IMG/VR virus record: IMGVR_UViG_2671180567_000004
Location: 1-4,037 of that record
Direction: 5' to 3' (one strand)
Source of the DNA: a virus
Taxonomy: Duplodnaviria; Heunggongvirae; Uroviricota; Caudoviricetes
Length of the DNA stretch: 4,037 bases
A program made the translations under genes and the position numbers. Positions within the stretch are counted from its first letter, which is position 1. Every line of letters starts with the position of its first letter. This document shows positions 1 to 3,903 of the stretch, one piece after another. The notes under the pieces were generated by a model, which did not search any database, was not told where the DNA came from, and saw only the letters and a list, made by a program, of their open reading frames with translations.

Positions 1-511
1 GTGAGGAGAAATAGGTGTTCTGCTTACCGTTATCCGTTGTCTGTGTACGGGGAGTTCTGGCTTTCGGTGCCAGCATCTGCGCCACACCACCCAGGATCAT
101 ACTGGCCCCTGCTGCATACATACCCGATACAGCCGCGGCCCCCAGCCAGCCCACAGGGTTCCACCATGCCACCGCAATCAGCGCCGCACCCAGCACTGCC
201 TGAAACACACCACCACTTTTGGCACCCACCAGGCGCGGCACGATGTGGATCACGGCACCATTTGCCAGCGGCTCATTAAGACGGGCAGATAATTCATTTT
301 CACCTGTATCACGCCCGGCAATGCGTACCTGATACCAGCCGTCGCTCAGCTTCTGACGAAACGCCGGGATCTGCATGGCCAGCGCCCGGATGGCTTCGGC
401 CCCCGTTTTTACACGAAGGTCGATGCGGCGGCCAAATCGTTGTAAATCCCCGTAAAGGCAGATGCGTGCCATGCCCGGTGACGCCAGAGGGAGTGTGTGC
501 GTCGCTGCCAT
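1..511 (-). CDS. I: tail assembly protein I (lambda gpI homolog), N-terminal ~170 codons; gene continues beyond the 5' edge of the window
   Basis: Not in the ORF track because no stop lies in the window. Hand translation of the reverse complement from ATG at 511..509 gives MAATHTLPLASPGMARICLYGDLQRFGRRIDLRVKTGAEAIRALAMQIPAFRQKLSDGWYQVRIAGRD...VIHIVPRLVGAKSGGVFQAVLGAALIAVAWWNP...ASMILGGVAQMLAPKARTPRTQTTDNGKQNTYFSS with no stop down to position 1. This matches my memory of lambda gpI, and the position after K fits lambda order. The start overlaps the 3' end of K by about 100 nt in another frame. Confidence 0.85.
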   Translation of the reverse strand, partial: MAATHTLPLASPGMARICLYGDLQRFGRRIDLRVKTGAEAIRALAMQIPAFRQKLSDGWYQVRIAGRDTGENELSARLNEPLANGAVIHIVPRLVGAKSGGVFQAVLGAALIAVAWWNPVGWLGAAAVSGMYAAGASMILGGVAQMLAPKARTPRTQTTDNGKQNTYFSS

Positions 512-1146
512 TTGTCGGTATACCTCTCTCGTTTGCTCAGTTGTTCAGGAATATGGTGCAGCAGCTCGCCGTCACCACAGTAAATGGCGGCATGATTCGG
601 CACCGATGAACCAAAACAGCACAGCAGCACATCGCCCGGTTGTGCTGATGACAACGGCACCTGATACAGCCCTGTGGCCTCCAGATTATCCAGATAGAGA
701 TTCTGACCGTGACGCCACCAGTCATCCCCGCGATGAAAATCCGGCATCTCAATCCCCGCCAGATGATAAGCATCCCGGAACAGCGTGTAACAGTCCGTCA
801 CCCCGTGCTCAAAGCGCCGCCCGGTGAGATGCGGCACACAGCGGAACTTATGAATCGCCCCCCGGCAGACCAGCCACCACGGCAAATCACTCTGCACCTG
901 CAGCCGCCGGTCGGCCTCACTCAGCCAGGGCAGACCACCGGGGTGGCTGTGGACCAGCGCCACAATCTCACCCTGCATTTCTGCCTGCAACCAGTCTTCC
1001 GGCAACATACGGAAATACGCCTCCGGCTCACCGGAGATATTCACGCAGGGGAAATATCTTTCCCCCTCCGGCGTGCTTACCACGAAGCCGCACGACTCCG
1101 CTGGCGCACATCGCCGGGCGTGCGCCAATATATTGCTATAGAGCAT
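409..1146 (-). CDS. K: tail tip assembly protein K (lambda gpK homolog); N-terminal MPN/JAMM-type domain plus C-terminal NlpC/P60-type domain
   Basis: ORF-track entry 409..1185 (258 aa) contains HSHPGGLPWLSEAD (JAMM-like H-x-H...S-x-x-D, His codon at 949..951) with an upstream glutamate, then a C-terminal Cys/His region (GVTDCYTLF, VPNHAAIY) typical of NlpC/P60 hydrolases. The protein matches my memory of lambda K. I place the start at the second in-frame ATG (1146..1144) because it is preceded by AGGAG (complement of 1152..1156) at 5-nt spacing, while the first ATG at 1185 has no Shine-Dalgarno and would put a terminator-like hairpin inside the coding sequence. Predicted 245 aa. Confidence 0.9.
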   Translation of the reverse strand: MLYSNILAHARRCAPAESCGFVVSTPEGERYFPCVNISGEPEAYFRMLPEDWLQAEMQGEIVALVHSHPGGLPWLSEADRRLQVQSDLPWWLVCRGAIHKFRCVPHLTGRRFEHGVTDCYTLFRDAYHLAGIEMPDFHRGDDWWRHGQNLYLDNLEATGLYQVPLSSAQPGDVLLCCFGSSVPNHAAIYCGDGELLHHIPEQLSKRERYTDKWQRRTHSLWRHRAWHASAFTGIYNDLAAASTFV

Positions 1147-1159
1147 GAGAACTCCTGAT

Positions 1160-1182
1160 AAAAAACCCAGCCGAAGCTGGGT
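1160..1182 (-). terminator. candidate intrinsic terminator on the minus strand between ant stop and K ribosome-binding site
   Basis: Minus-strand RNA would read ACCCAGC-UUCG-GCUGGGU (7-bp GC-rich stem, UUCG tetraloop) followed directly by UUUUUU, then the K Shine-Dalgarno AGGAG. Plus-strand coordinates: A-tract 1160..1165, stem arms 1165..1171 and 1176..1182. Confidence 0.55.
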
Positions 1183-1200
1183 CATTTCGTTGGCAATCTG

Positions 1201-2121
1201 TTAGTAGTGATGCAGTGAAGGAGGTAATTCTTTGTTCTTAAGTCTTACCCATGCAGAAAGATTCGTTGGTCCGTCTGGCTCATTAATATCAATATCTCGC
1301 GTGTGATTGATTAAAACGTCTCTCGCCATTCCGATAACATACGAGAACTCATGGCCGTAGTCGTAGCACCTGCCAGAATAGTTTGATTGAATTTGCTTTA
1401 GCGCCAGATACAGTTCGCGGAATAATGCCTGTGAGCGGTTGGCATAATCCCATAGCCATACAAGGCTGTTTGCTTCTTTTGCGGAAAGCTCGTTGGTGCT
1501 CTTCTCTTGTTTGCCGATTAACTCTCCTTCAAGCGGAACGCGAGCAGCAAGTGACAGAGCTTCGGTAAACTGCTCCTCGCTGATTTCTTTGTATGAACAC
1601 CCAAAATGAGATTTCAGTGACGACCACATGGTGATCATCGCCTTCGCCTGTTTTTCTTTTGGCAGAGACTGACCGCGACTCATGACGAGTTGTTTAATGG
1701 CTTCCTGCTGTTCAGTGGTGATTTTCCCCAGCAATGCCTTTTTAGCTTTGCGCGGGTTAATCACATGGCCTTTAGTCCAGTACTCGTAGAGCACATCGTC
1801 ACACTCTTCCTGATACTGGATTACCTTGTCGCGAATTTCAGGGCGGACTTTGTTAGGACTGATGGTTTGGAGCCAACCATTCAGTTTACGCAAAGCAAGG
1901 CAAATCATGGTCTGCATACCGCCAACTGAAGGTATTGCGATTTCCACAATACCTTTAGCAAATCTTTGTTTTAACTTTGTAAACTGTGAAGCCCAATCCA
2001 TACCCATTCCCTCAACGATAGGTTTCATTGGGGTGTACGGTTCGCCGTTGTGATTGACGACATAAAGCTCTGCGCCGTGGAATGGCACGTTGATAGTAGA
2101 TACCGCTGTTGCTATACTCAT
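1201..2121 (-). CDS. ant: phage antirepressor (Ant-like) protein, about 306 aa
   Basis: ORF-track entry 1201..2175 (324 aa from a GTG). I prefer the in-frame ATG at 2121..2119 because it is preceded by AAGGAA (complement of 2131..2136, 8-nt spacer) and the GTG at 2175 has no Shine-Dalgarno. The N-terminus MSIATAVSTINVPFHGAELYVVNHNGEPYTPMKPIVEGMGMDWASQFTKLK resembles phage antirepressor N-terminal domains (P22 Ant / Bro-N-like) from memory. Assignment is strengthened by the adjacent upstream Arc-like and divergent Mnt-like genes. Stop TAA at 1203..1201. Confidence 0.7.
   Translation of the reverse strand: MSIATAVSTINVPFHGAELYVVNHNGEPYTPMKPIVEGMGMDWASQFTKLKQRFAKGIVEIAIPSVGGMQTMICLALRKLNGWLQTISPNKVRPEIRDKVIQYQEECDDVLYEYWTKGHVINPRKAKKALLGKITTEQQEAIKQLVMSRGQSLPKEKQAKAMITMWSSLKSHFGCSYKEISEEQFTEALSLAARVPLEGELIGKQEKSTNELSAKEANSLVWLWDYANRSQALFRELYLALKQIQSNYSGRCYDYGHEFSYVIGMARDVLINHTRDIDINEPDGPTNLSAWVRLKNKELPPSLHHY
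2090..2118 (+). promoter_or_regulatory. candidate sigma70 promoter for an antisense (sar-like) RNA, inside the 5' end of ant
   Basis: Plus strand: -35 TTGATA (2090..2095), 17-bp spacer, extended -10 TGc TATACT (TG at 2110..2111, hexamer 2113..2118). Predicted start near 2125, reading antisense across the ant Shine-Dalgarno. Confidence 0.4.
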
Positions 2122-2124
2122 TTC

Positions 2125-2195
2125 GTTAGTTCCTTGGAAGTTACTGACATAGAAGCCCGATTTGTGTTCGCGCACTGTCGGGCTTCGCTATTTTT
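2125..2195 (+). ncRNA. candidate cis-antisense small RNA (sar-like, about 70 nt) complementary to the ant ribosome-binding site and arc-ant spacer
   Basis: Bounded by the candidate promoter at 2090..2118 and the plus-strand hairpin plus U-tract at 2152..2195. The transcript would contain UCCUUG, the complement of the ant Shine-Dalgarno. P22 immI is known to encode a short antisense RNA (sar) in the arc-ant spacer; this is an analogy, not a sequence match. Confidence 0.35.
2152..2195 (+). terminator. candidate unidirectional intrinsic terminator (plus strand) in the arc-ant spacer
   Basis: Inverted repeat GAAGCCCGA (2152..2160) / TCGGGCTTC (2178..2186) gives a 9-bp stem with a 17-nt loop that has an inner GTG/CAC pairing. 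On the plus strand it is followed by GCTATTTTTAT (T-run 2191..2195). On the minus strand no U-tract follows, so arc-to-ant read-through should not be stopped. Confidence 0.4.
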
Positions 2196-2361: not shown

Positions 2362-2399
2362 CTCCACTCCTTAAATAGCCTCACTATGGGGCAACCAAA

Positions 2400-2428
2400 A
2401 TTGTCACACCGTGCGTCATTGAAGTCAA
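2400..2428 (-). promoter_or_regulatory. candidate Pant-like sigma70 promoter driving arc-ant (minus strand)
   Basis: Minus strand reads TTGACT (complement of 2423..2428), 17-bp spacer, TGtGACAAT (extended -10; hexamer is complement of 2400..2405). Predicted start about 30 nt upstream of the arc ATG. The spacer contains CACCGTG (2407..2413). Confidence 0.45.
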
Positions 2429-2447
2429 CCCCACCGTGGGGCATAAT
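2419..2447 (+). promoter_or_regulatory. candidate Pmnt-like sigma70 promoter driving the Mnt-like gene (plus strand)
   Basis: Plus strand: -35 TTGAAG (2419..2424), 17-bp spacer, -10 CATAAT (2442..2447), about 37 bp before the ATG at 2485. Its -35 overlaps the -35 of the divergent minus-strand promoter back-to-back. The spacer contains the palindrome CCCCAC-C-GTGGGG (2429..2441). Confidence 0.5.
2429..2441. promoter_or_regulatory. candidate operator: 13-bp palindrome CCCCAC-C-GTGGGG
   Basis: Dyad symmetry (6-bp arms around a central C) between the two -35 elements and abutting the plus-strand -10. Its core CACCGTG recurs as a direct repeat at 2407..2413 inside the opposite promoter spacer. 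The size and symmetry suit a ribbon-helix-helix dimer or tetramer site. Confidence 0.45.
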
Positions 2448-2484: not shown

Positions 2485-2859
2485 ATGAGTAGAGAAGACC
2501 CTCAACTTCGGATTAGGCTTCCTGTTGAATTAAAAAAAATAATTGAAGCGTCATCAAAACAAAATAATCGTTCTATGAATGCTGAGATTGTCACTCTGCT
2601 TGAGTTGGCGATTCGTGTTTGTCGTGATTTTGGGCCGGAGGATGGTCCTATCGTTCAGCAGTTTAAAGAACAACTAGATGCGATAAACAGAAAATATGAT
2701 AAAAGCGAGCATGAAAAACTTATACCTCAACTTTTAGAAATCATAGAAAAACAGAAAAAACAAGTAGATAAACTTATTAGCATGGTTGAAAGATCAATTC
2801 CTCTTTCAGAGGAATATAAGCAGAAATATCTTGGTGATGACAACAAAAAACCCACCTGA
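2485..2859 (+). CDS. mnt: Mnt-like ribbon-helix-helix repressor with extended C-terminal helical region, 124 aa
   Basis: ORF-track entry 2485..2859. N-terminus MSREDPQLRIRLPVELKKIIEASSKQNNRSMNAEIVTLLELAI has the Arc/MetJ-type strand-helix-helix signature and resembles the P22 Mnt N-terminus as I remember it (RDDPHFNFRMP...NGRSMNSEL...). The C-terminal part (LIPQLLEIIEKQKKQVDKLISMVERS) is heptad-like and K/E-rich, consistent with an oligomerisation helix. It is divergent from arc-ant and convergent with L. Confidence 0.8.
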   Translation: MSREDPQLRIRLPVELKKIIEASSKQNNRSMNAEIVTLLELAIRVCRDFGPEDGPIVQQFKEQLDAINRKYDKSEHEKLIPQLLEIIEKQKKQVDKLISMVERSIPLSEEYKQKYLGDDNKKPT

Positions 2860-2866
2860 TGGTGGG
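2845..2866 (-). terminator. candidate intrinsic terminator on the minus strand just after the L stop codon
   Basis: Minus-strand RNA after the L stop (TAA, complement of 2876..2878) reads CCCACC-AUCA-GGUGGG followed directly by UUUUUU. Plus-strand coordinates: A-tract 2845..2850, stem arms 2851..2856 and 2861..2866. The hairpin overlaps the Mnt-like stop codon (TGA 2857..2859, in the loop). Confidence 0.5.
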
Positions 2867-2875
2867 CATAATCCA

Positions 2876-3574
2876 TTACTGCGAAAGTTTGTTAATGGAA
2901 AGGAAGCCGCCAAAGTTGCCGACGTTATTGCGAAACTTACAGCCACTCAGGCATTTGCTGCATTTATCCTTCGTGATATCGGACGTCGGCTGATCATATT
3001 CATCCGCGACTGCCGGACCGTGATAACCGCACTCATCACCGCGATAGGTCCAGGTGCAGGTGTTGGCCAGCATGATACGTCCCGGAAAAACAGCGCCGTC
3101 CGTTTCCGTCGGCGTGGACAGTACAAAAGAGGCACTCACCGCGCTCAGTTCGCTGCACTGCTCAATGCGCCAGCGGCTGATCACCTCCTGCTCCGGATCG
3201 GCGTCACTGTTTCCGTTGACGAAGTTCACCGCATCCAGAAAACGGGCGTAAACCTTACGCCGGACCACCGTTCCGCCGACCAGACTCTGCAGATCTTCCG
3301 CCATCCCGGTGACCATACCGTACAGGTTAGAAACCGTCAGCGTGGGGCGCGTACTGGTGCCTTTGCCATTCAGTTCAAAACCACTCCCCTGAATGGGATA
3401 CGGCTGATACTGTCGCCCCTGCCAGGTGACCGGCTCACCTTTTTCGTTCTGCTCATTACAGAAAAAATAACGTTCTCCACCGACCTCTGTCAGGTCGATT
3501 TCCCAGAGCACCACGCTGGCCGACTGCTCCGCACGGGTGCATTCATTCAGTGTTTCCTGCCGGATATCCTGCAT
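2876..3574 (-). CDS. L: minor tail protein L (lambda gpL homolog), 232 aa
   Basis: ORF-track protein MQDIRQETLNECTRAEQSASVVLWEIDLTEVGGERYFFCNEQNEKGEPVTWQGRQYQPYPIQ...CSKCLSGCKFRNNVGNFGGFLSINKLSQ matches lambda gpL almost along its whole length from memory. The start ATG overlaps the M stop (TGATG, 3576..3572). Four C-terminal cysteines are present. Confidence 0.95.
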   Translation of the reverse strand: MQDIRQETLNECTRAEQSASVVLWEIDLTEVGGERYFFCNEQNEKGEPVTWQGRQYQPYPIQGSGFELNGKGTSTRPTLTVSNLYGMVTGMAEDLQSLVGGTVVRRKVYARFLDAVNFVNGNSDADPEQEVISRWRIEQCSELSAVSASFVLSTPTETDGAVFPGRIMLANTCTWTYRGDECGYHGPAVADEYDQPTSDITKDKCSKCLSGCKFRNNVGNFGGFLSINKLSQ

Positions 3575-3903
3575 CAGTTCACCACCTGTTCAAACTCTGC
3601 GCTGAACTCAACACGCAGCATACTGACCCGCGACGACCATTTTGCGCAGGTCACCTTTATCTGCCGCCACTCATAAGGCGGCGTCCACAGAAAGGCTTTC
3701 CAGCCCCCGTGCTCTTCCAGAAACGACTCCAGTACCGTGGCCTCCTCACGGGGGACAGAAAGCGTCACGCTGTACGTTTTCAGGTTGGCATTCAGCCCGG
3801 CAGGCGCTCGCTGGGAATAGCCATCACCAAAGCGCACCTTTCTTACAGAAGGGGCCGAAGCCACATCCATACCGGGTTTCACTTTCCAGCGGAAGGTTTT
3901 CAT
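3574..3903 (-). CDS. M: minor tail protein M (lambda gpM homolog), 109 aa
   Basis: ORF-track protein MKTFRWKVKPGMDVASAPSVRKVRFGDGYSQRAPAGLNANLKTYSVTLSVPREEATVLESFLEEHGGWKAFLWTPPYEWRQIKVTCAKWSSRVSMLRVEFSAEFEQVVN is near-identical to lambda gpM from memory. The start overlaps the H stop (ATGA). Confidence 0.95.
   Translation of the reverse strand: MKTFRWKVKPGMDVASAPSVRKVRFGDGYSQRAPAGLNANLKTYSVTLSVPREEATVLESFLEEHGGWKAFLWTPPYEWRQIKVTCAKWSSRVSMLRVEFSAEFEQVVN

Follow-up and report, generated by a model that had tools for sequence, protein, structure and literature searches.

Mnt of phage P22 is the only studied member of its class and tetramerises via its C-terminal part; tetramers of RHH proteins are stabilised by extra domains (PMC3325190). 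P22 Mnt is a protein of 83 aa with two Pfam domains, PF03869 and PF11423 (PDB 1mnt). Pseudomonas AmrZ (108 aa, PDB 3qoq) is likewise an Arc/Mnt-type RHH protein with a C-terminal domain that lacks sequence relatives, and its residues 67-108 have been proposed to act in oligomerisation and in dimer-dimer association on two half-sites (PMC3325190). For the P22-like phage epsilon34, an "ant moron" or immI has been described, which carries mnt, arc, ant and an antisense RNA and whose content varies (PMC2629481).

Here, we compare with these systems a window of 4,037 nucleotides, i.e. the whole stretch of DNA that was analysed. One of its ORFs encodes a protein that shares with P22 Mnt a homologous RHH head and the same slot divergent from arc and ant. 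The CCACCGTGG core of the operator and its offset to the arc-ant promoter are also the same, and the gene ends in KK(T/P)T within a terminator hairpin, as mnt does. The differences from P22 are a C-terminal domain that is non-homologous and twice as long, predicted contacts Q/R/R rather than H/N/R, outer operator bases CCCC rather than GGTC, a second operator copy in the predicted promoter of the Mnt-like gene itself, and a position of that promoter about 37 bp further from the arc-ant promoter. We propose, with a probability of about 0.6, that the ORF is the maintenance repressor of a P22 immI-type Ant switch, with a C-terminal domain that joins RHH dimers.

The module and its genomic context

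The large genes of the window are all lambdoid tail genes, encoded on the minus strand (Table 1). Between tail genes K and L there is an insert of 1.7 kb with three genes and a GC content of 36-49%, against 55-63% in the tail genes; the Mnt-like gene itself has 36-40%. The antirepressor Ant of the insert is 56% identical to P22 Ant over its full length (E = 1e-117), and therefore the insert is a P22 immI-type module, or ant moron. Gene order and orientation are as in P22, with the Ant-family gene downstream of the Arc-like gene and divergent from the Mnt-like gene. The Arc-like protein scores 19.1 bits with Pfam Arc, just under the cut-off, and matches the PHROG Arc-like repressor at E = 5.5e-6; PGAP annotates the same gene of 168 nt, and this partner is conserved in related loci. 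None of the three module proteins matched an NCBIfam family above threshold. The candidate sar-like antisense RNA has a predicted promoter TTGATA-17-TATACT (10 of 12 consensus matches) and a predicted fold of -28.1 kcal/mol (z = -4.3), and its region aligns with the arc-ant intercistronic region of P22; Rfam gave no match at E <= 1 anywhere in the window.

Table 1 Features of the window (positions count from the first letter of the window)
Feature	Position	Strand	Basis or remark
Tail gene I, 3' part	left end of window	-	annotated in related phages and in locus L001
Tail gene K	409-1185	-	JAB + NlpC/P60 domains
Antirepressor Ant, 306 aa	1201-2121	-	P22_AR_N + P22_AR_C domains
Candidate sar-like antisense RNA	2124-2195	+	opposite ant ribosome-binding site; terminator hairpin 2152-2186
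Arc-like small RHH protein, 55 aa	2194-2361	-	ATG 2361 behind Shine-Dalgarno AAGGAG
Operator site A, CCTCAC-T-ATGGGG	2379-2391	.	about +2 to +15 of predicted arc-ant promoter; P22 Omnt position
Predicted sigma-70 promoter, arc-like/ant (TTGACT, 17 nt, TG-n-GACAAT)	2400-2428	-	consensus scan 9/12
Operator site B, TCACAC-C-GTGCGT	2404-2416	.	predicted arc-ant promoter spacer; P22 Oarc position
Predicted sigma-70 promoter, Mnt-like gene (TTGAAG, 17 nt, CATAAT)	2419-2447	+	consensus scan 9/12
Operator site C, perfect palindrome CCCCAC-C-GTGGGG	2429-2441	.	spacer of predicted Mnt-like promoter
Mnt-like 124-aa repressor gene ("mnt slot": RHH head + helical C-terminal domain)	2485-2859	+	ORF, Pfam Arc, 1mnt, orthologues, dN/dS
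RHH DNA-binding head, residues 1-44	2485-2616	+	Pfam, PDB, AF2, BLASTP, hhalign, Foldseek
C-terminal helical domain, residues 45-120	2617-2844	+	AF2 with alignment, heptad test; presumed oligomerisation module
KKPT tail + stop codon	2845-2859	+	A-tract, left stem and loop start of boundary terminator
Intrinsic terminator hairpin, GCCCACC-AUCA-GGUGGGU then U6	2850-2867	-	terminator scan, fold
Tail gene L	2876-3574	-	Phage_tail_L, E = 4.6e-101
Tail gene M	3574-3903	-	

Like the ant moron of epsilon34, the module is a self-contained unit inserted in the late operon, but it lies between L and K and not before the tailspike gene. The Ant and Arc-like genes also lie between L and K in annotated Stx phages and in the E. 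coli O157:H7 chromosome; a literature search found no paper discussing this location. The sites of the modules of other relatives are lambdoid L-K or K-I, beside tape-measure genes, in a myovirus baseplate region or before a P22-like tailspike; these are tail regions of the siphovirus, myovirus and P22-like kinds. In every relative examined the gene is divergent from a small protein of 53-75 aa in the arc position, behind which come antirepressor-type genes; in these relatives they are of the P22_AR_N, Bro-N, KilA-N, ANT and ORF6N kinds.

This context bears on a different assignment of the gene, namely to an RHH antitoxin or a partition-type protein rather than to a regulator of an antirepressor. 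Such an assignment could draw on PHROG 795 and 2685, which are labelled "partition protein ATPase", and on a weak resemblance to FitA-like RHH proteins (E = 0.0023, short of the cut-off). However, the PHROG label was copied from RefSeq records that give this name to P22-type mnt, and we reject it as a propagated mis-annotation of mnt; moreover, arc-like and ant-type genes accompany the gene in every case. We hold the assignment to be very improbable: there is no toxin or ParA-type neighbour, and only the convergent tail gene L lies downstream. The antitoxin reading in particular is rejected, as no toxin gene adjoins.

The gene and its DNA-binding head

The boundaries of the ORF are exact (ATG at 2485, TGA at 2857-2859). 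In the nearest relative, RefSeq annotates the same ORF as "Arc family DNA-binding protein" (WP_032258060.1), full-length orthologues with 77-99% identity occur in E. coli, Salmonella and Citrobacter, and dN/dS is below 1 throughout. The ORF is a real, conserved and correctly delimited gene.

A preliminary description of the sequence had taken the first 45 or so residues for an RHH module of a Mnt-like repressor, and homology searches bear this out. Pfam Arc (PF03869) matches residues 2-40 with 30.6 bits against a cut-off of 20.4, which places the protein in the Arc class, and the best sequence match in the PDB is P22 Mnt itself (1mnt, residues 3-43, E = 0.0015). In direct comparison with P22 Mnt, for which we used a reference sequence that matches the P22 records at 100%, BLASTP aligned residues 1-43 only (33% identity, 74% positives), and hhalign against the Mnt family alignment covered residues 1-44 only (probability 98.4%). 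Nothing was aligned past residue 44 by either program. Foldseek searches of PDB and BFVD matched only the head, and only to RHH proteins (AmrZ on top, then Arc and CopG), none of them at E <= 0.001, and left the C-terminal part without a match. In the alignment-based AF2 model the head consists of a beta-strand (PQLRIRLP), helix A (14-26) and helix B (31-49).

The presumed DNA-contacting strand reads QLRIR in the Mnt-like protein and HFNFR in Mnt, a difference that had been noticed before; we find that the operators differ from those of P22 too. The contact residues of P22 Mnt are Arg2, His6, Asn8 and Arg10, and a change of His6 alters specificity. In the head described here, Q7, R9 and R11 should be the DNA contacts.

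The C-terminal domain

Residues 46-124 are rich in charged and polar residues (K 15%, E 11%, D 9%, Q 9%). An AF2 monomer model built from a 30-sequence alignment (mean pLDDT 74.8, pTM 0.37), which replaced a poor single-sequence model (pLDDT 55), predicts helices at 55-70, 73-104 and 109-115. An amphipathic heptad stretch lies at 80-105; its a/d positions (I80, L84, I87, K91, V94, I98, V101 and I105) are hydrophobic in seven of eight cases, and the pattern was equalled by 77 of 5000 composition-preserving shuffles. The K/E-rich, heptad-like helical region of about 80 residues proposed from the raw sequence is thus upheld, as is the statement that it is far longer than its counterpart in Mnt: about 80 residues follow the RHH, compared with about 39 in P22 Mnt.

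It is not, however, an extension of the Mnt helix, as the preliminary description had it. The Mnt tetramerisation domain PF11423 was readily found in the positive control (P22 Mnt residues 53-80, E = 1.6e-20), whereas neither PF11423 nor any other Pfam family matched the C-terminal 82 residues at E <= 1. Strict Mnt relatives are almost all 82-86 aa long, and all 120 relatives listed carry PF11423 together with the Arc domain. The protein therefore has a Mnt-related head and lacks the tetramerisation domain of the strict Mnt family, and its C-terminal part is a non-homologous replacement of the Mnt domain. The same searches (BLASTP, hhalign and PF11423) produced no alignment of the protein to ordinary Mnt proteins over its full length, the observation that the preliminary description had named as speaking against a real extension.

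Used alone as a query, the C-terminal part found only 18 protein clusters, all RHH-headed and all from E. coli, Salmonella or Citrobacter. The allele of the window is rare among complete E. coli genomes (2 of 5426), and its C-terminal type is absent from every record of a collection of sequenced, isolated phages. Against the Salmonella and Citrobacter orthologues dN/dS is 0.27-0.28 in the C-terminal part, at a dS of about 0.45, and 0.05 in the head; the C-terminal part is therefore translated and constrained.

These values also bear on the possibility that the long C-terminal part is an artefact of read-through or fusion of a short Mnt-like gene, which the AT-rich gene (36-40% GC) and the overlap of the tail codons with a terminator might be taken to indicate. 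The full-length orthologues come from three genera, though, the C-terminal dN/dS of 0.27 was obtained at a dS of about 0.45, the helices are predicted with fair confidence and RefSeq annotates the same ORF. Of the readings considered, this is the least probable, and the pattern of conservation already refutes it.

Judging by the structural model and by analogy with Mnt and AmrZ, the most likely role of the C-terminal domain would be oligomerisation. The analogy with AmrZ has its bounds: AmrZ has an extended N-terminus, acts as a global regulator encoded on the chromosome and stands in no antirepressor context, and its C-terminal part has no sequence similarity to that of the window.

Exchange of C-terminal modules

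The length of the protein, which at first sight appeared unusual, is not so among its relatives. In the best 150 representatives of 50%-identity clusters of RHH relatives, the median is 114 aa (range 56-241 aa); 53 of these 150 have at least 124 aa and only 28 have 90 aa or less. Long and variable C-terminal parts are normal in this class, and the gene is a fairly ordinary member of it, a rare allele.

At least five unrelated C-terminal modules are preceded by the same head, MSREDPQLRIRLP...NNRSMNAEI, in nearly unchanged form. These include the type of the window (proteins of 124-128 aa), another E. coli type (116-126 aa), a Klebsiella type (117-121 aa, one of them named "regulatory protein Mnt"), a Y. 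pestis type (143 aa) and an Enterobacter type (147 aa, listed in 1637 assembly-index blocks). The Klebsiella, Y. pestis and Enterobacter proteins have an identical head and the same operators as the window, and the geometry of the operators is unchanged across the at least five modules. In E. coli O157:H7 prophages a 106-aa Arc-family protein occupies the same slot; like the Klebsiella, Y. pestis and Enterobacter proteins, it consists of an RHH head with a C-terminus of 60-100 residues, unrelated in sequence to that of the window, and has the same partners. In the opposite direction, a Citrobacter freundii protein (P0018) carries the C-terminal part of the window type behind a quite different head, with a dS of 1.8 in the head and 0.42 in the C-terminal part. 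The combination of one head with many C-termini, and the head swap in P0018, indicate a two-module mosaic with the junction at about residue 40-45. In terms of sequence relationships, then, the C-terminal part behaves as an independent module.

That at least five C-terminal modules are found on one head with unchanged operator spacing fits a generic role in assembly. The modules are of different kinds, helical in the window, apparently globular in Enterobacter and Yersinia and of another coiled form in Klebsiella, all combined with one head and operator set. A protein with the same head whose C-terminal module looks globular rather than coiled is P0082, and in E. coli strain EC12 the slot holds a repressor of 269 aa with an HTH and a Peptidase_S24 domain. 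Therefore, the variable part may carry regulatory input beyond assembly.

Taken further, this would make the C-terminal domain a module for input or partner binding, instead of or besides assembly. A factor from the phage or the host would then bind to it, or a protease would target it, and the derepression of Ant and the induction of the prophage would answer a specific cue. We consider such a function unlikely. The EC12 repressor, which has the same NKKPT end, is of the self-cleaving, signal-responsive LexA/CI type; at least five unrelated modules stand behind one head; and evolution is faster in the C-terminal part than in the head (dN/dS of 0.27 versus 0.05). On the other hand, profile searches brought up no known domain for ligand binding, proteolysis or interaction, the region resembles simple amphipathic helices, the C-terminal type is not accompanied by any conserved extra gene in the loci examined, and the C-terminal part of P22 Mnt serves tetramerisation (PMC3325190). 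The stronger version, in which the variable C-terminal parts are interchangeable input modules throughout and the domain in the window, so far uncharacterised, is a sensor or binds a partner instead of serving as a passive device for tetramerisation, we hold to be more doubtful still. If it were true, the cue that fires the Ant switch would differ from one version to the next.

Operators and predicted promoters

The 123-bp intergenic region contains three related sites, centred at 2385, 2410 and 2435 and thus spaced by 25 bp (sites A, B and C; Table 1). Within the window alone, the operator pattern (with at most 3 mismatches) was found 4 times against 1.75 expected and was equalled in 26 of 200 shuffles, which is not significant; the case for the operators therefore rests on their conservation across loci. 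Site C is palindromic, with both arms invariant, in all 10 sequences that have this head, namely that of the window and those of 9 fetched loci. Site A is a palindrome in 5-6 of its 6 positions in 8 of the 9 fetched loci, from six genera, and in 4 of 6 in the Klebsiella locus L007; the Y. pestis site shows a symmetric double change (CCTCAC-G-GTGAGG). The centre base of sites A and C is free (C, G, A or T). Site B lies within a 20-bp block that is invariant in five aligned loci. The spacing of 25-26 bp between the three sites is conserved in Escherichia, Klebsiella, Enterobacter, Yersinia, Salmonella and Citrobacter, and loci with other heads have other palindromes at the same places, e.g. AGTCAA-A-TTGACT.

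P22 Omnt reads AGGTCCAC-C-GTGGACCT, and the central 9 bp of site C are identical to those of Omnt while the outer bases differ. This agreement of symmetry and core with Omnt would fit a tetramer that occupies one symmetric operator as two paired dimers. This difference in the outer bases goes with the replacement of H/N/R by Q/R/R on the recognition strand. The predicted arc-ant promoter has its -35 element at 2428-2423 and its -10 element at 2405-2400, and the offsets between site A and this promoter equal the annotated offsets between Omnt and Pant in P22. The -10 element of the predicted Mnt-like promoter, CATAAT, is invariant across loci. Site C and this promoter lie on about 37 bp that are absent from P22, and the layout suggests that the putative repressor may directly and negatively regulate its own gene. 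In a literature search we found no paper on this type of protein or on the three-site layout.

Since A and C share a type from which B differs, we attribute this pair to the Mnt-like protein and B to the Arc-like one, which is the most likely distribution as far as the sites themselves can tell. In the fetched loci the Arc-like partner co-varies with the head, and so this comparison does not settle which of the two proteins reads which site; the contact triads of the two are near-identical (QRR in the Mnt-like and QKR in the Arc-like protein).

The three-site arrangement raises the question of whether an assembly larger than a tetramer could bridge A and C across B, and so couple the repression of ant to autoregulation in a geometry absent from P22. 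The conservation of three sites at 25-26 bp spacing across six genera with this head, the single Omnt of P22 and a helical part about 2.5 times as long as that of Mnt all agree with bridging. It is nevertheless improbable, although less so than the antitoxin and artefact readings: a distance of 50 bp puts A and C out of helical phase and leaves very little length for a loop, and the three sites keep their arrangement where the C-terminal module differs greatly in size and probably in fold, so that the geometry is independent of this particular C-terminal domain. The same distance, about 4.8 helical turns, is an observation that also goes against our main explanation, in that simple bridging is disfavoured.

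The gene end and the boundary terminator

The last codons of the gene, AAA AAA CCC ACC TGA, double as part of an intrinsic terminator on the opposite strand, namely its A-tract, its left stem and the first part of its loop. The hairpin lies 9 nt past the end of tail gene L, counted from the stop codon, and has a folding energy of -14.2 kcal/mol (z = -2.5), and a matching hairpin lies at the 3' end of P22 mnt. A KK(P/T)T end, usually with the hairpin, is found behind unrelated C-terminal domains, in genuine Mnt (KKPT/KKTT) and in the HTH-S24 repressor; the O157:H7, Klebsiella and Enterobacter slot proteins share the KKPT end of the window. In about 450 E. coli genomes, the last 20 or so nucleotides of the gene and the end of L are common and surround different alleles. 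The presence of the same end and hairpin on unrelated proteins indicates that the tail is mainly a conserved module boundary. The (K/D)KPT end is kept by synonymous changes in two loci (L004 and L010) in which the hairpin is absent, and given these loci the tail may also have a role at the protein level. The preliminary description had spoken of a basic tail. An NKKPT end does exist, but the description overstated it: the C-terminal part is near neutral overall (15 K/R and 16 D/E), and the codons of the end are largely a terminator feature at the DNA level.

The arms CCCACC/GGTGGG at 2851-2866 were also considered as a fourth operator. This was rejected, as they are kept in locus L013, whose head and operators differ.

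Proposed mechanism and significance

Domain homology, synteny, operator conservation and the exchange of modules are established by the comparisons above, while the promoters, the pairing of proteins with sites and the oligomeric state are inferred. We propose a mechanism in which the Mnt-like protein would keep the Ant switch off in the lysogen. Its RHH dimer would insert a two-stranded beta-ribbon into the major groove, and the head would most likely read palindromes of the form CC(C/T)CAC-N-GTG(G/A)GG. Site A overlaps the predicted start of the arc-ant transcript, so that binding there would hold Ant off, and site C is located inside the gene's own predicted promoter, so that binding there would result in negative autoregulation. 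Site B would most likely serve as the operator of the Arc-like protein. The three predicted C-terminal helices, one of them long and amphipathic, would stand in for the 30-residue coiled coil of Mnt and join RHH dimers into tetramers or larger assemblies, and the two halves of each 13-bp palindrome would thereby be filled cooperatively.

For the gene in the window the gain in knowledge is modest, as it is a rare allele of a common and already annotated class. For the class, the comparison offers a simple scheme by which hundreds of tail-region genes of the "Arc family" could be annotated, and it highlights a set of uncharacterised small domains, whose role would be either in assembly or in signal input. 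The operator layout differs from the textbook case of P22 by an extra, putatively autoregulatory site. Antirepressor modules decide when prophages, including lambdoid ones of the Stx type, leave lysogeny, and the maintenance repressor of such a module appears here as a protein of two parts, of which the DNA-reading head is conserved and the C-terminal domain is freely exchanged.

Paired repressors and predicted regulatory sites of the immI-type module

The DNA-contact triads, taken as the residues at -6, -4 and -2 from the conserved proline, were compared between the two repressors of the module in the window (2485-2520 and 2320-2361), in comparison loci L010, L013 and L015, and in P22. Inside each module compared, the Mnt-like and Arc-like proteins carry an identical or near-identical triad, and the operator sites inside one module are similar to each other. 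Taken together, these sequence likenesses suggest that the Mnt-like and Arc-like repressors co-evolve on related sites.

DNA-contact triads of the paired repressors
Module	Mnt or Mnt-like	Arc or Arc-like
Window	QRR	QKR
Salmonella P22-like prophage	QKR	QKR
C. freundii	KTR	KTR
P22	HNR	QNR

Over the whole immI module (~1020-2992), only two differences distinguish the window from the most similar locus, L001 of E. coli CFSAN018748. One of these is at position 2386, which is A in the window and G in L001. The GTG arm of predicted operator site A, the palindrome overlapping the start of the predicted arc-ant transcript, begins at this base, which is G in 9/9 of the loci compared with the window. The A at 2386 may be a change that weakens the predicted operator, or it may be due to chance.

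The mechanical open reading frame starts of ant (2175) and of the Arc-like gene (2367) are probably too far upstream. The alignment of ant to P22 Ant begins at the ATG at 2121, which gives a protein of 306 aa and agrees with the RefSeq annotation, and the Arc-like gene (55 aa) most likely starts at the ATG at 2361, preceded by the Shine-Dalgarno sequence AAGGAG. A candidate sar-like antisense RNA was recognised in the window, with a predicted transcript of ~70 nt that is complementary to the ant start codon and ribosome-binding site. The candidate RNA folds at -28.1 kcal/mol (z = -4.3), and its region (2090-2195) can be aligned to the intercistronic region between arc and ant of P22; a search against Rfam gave no match.

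Predicted RNA and hairpin features of the window
Feature	Position	Strand	Sequence or basis
Candidate sar-like antisense RNA, including promoter-like site	2090-2195	+	Sequence features, fold, P22 alignment
Promoter-like site of candidate RNA	2090-2118	+	TTGATA-17-TATACT
Terminal hairpin of candidate RNA	2152-2186	+	GAAGCCCGA...TCGGGCTTC, then T-run
GC-rich hairpin	1164-1183		ACCCAGC-CGAA-GCTGGGT; terminator-like score on both strands

Boundary and variable content of the insert

The GC-rich hairpin is a marker of the other, K-side boundary of the insert. It separates the ant stop codon (1201) from the K coding region.

In E. coli EC12 (L029, 1812-2621), the position taken in the window by the Mnt-like gene (2485-2859), with the arc-like gene on one side and tail gene L on the other, is occupied by a 269-aa LexA/CI-type repressor (HTH_3 + Peptidase_S24). 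Its C-terminal end is NKKPT, as in the Mnt-like protein of the window; therefore, repressors of unrelated fold have been swapped here whilst the gene end was kept. At the same L-K site in Escherichia phage PhiR12_1 (L003, 2615-3399), the minus strand carries a small gene together with one for an antirepressor, and on the plus strand two genes (83 and 178 aa) replace the single Mnt-like gene. The PhiR12_1 insert appears to be a further cargo variant of the same moron.

The head of the Mnt-like protein of the window is found unchanged in an Enterobacter protein (L016, 3001-3444; 147 aa) and a Y. pestis protein (L020, 3001-3432; 143 aa), in which the C-terminal part (...KVRIGHTTFHIHLDDLELDGLSDEDF...) looks globular, not coiled. 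A Pfam scan of P0082, a protein with this head, matched no family for the globular-looking C-terminal part. In the collection this part is found very often, with 1637 assembly-index blocks listing the 147-aa protein, and it represents an uncharacterised small domain that may merit separate study.
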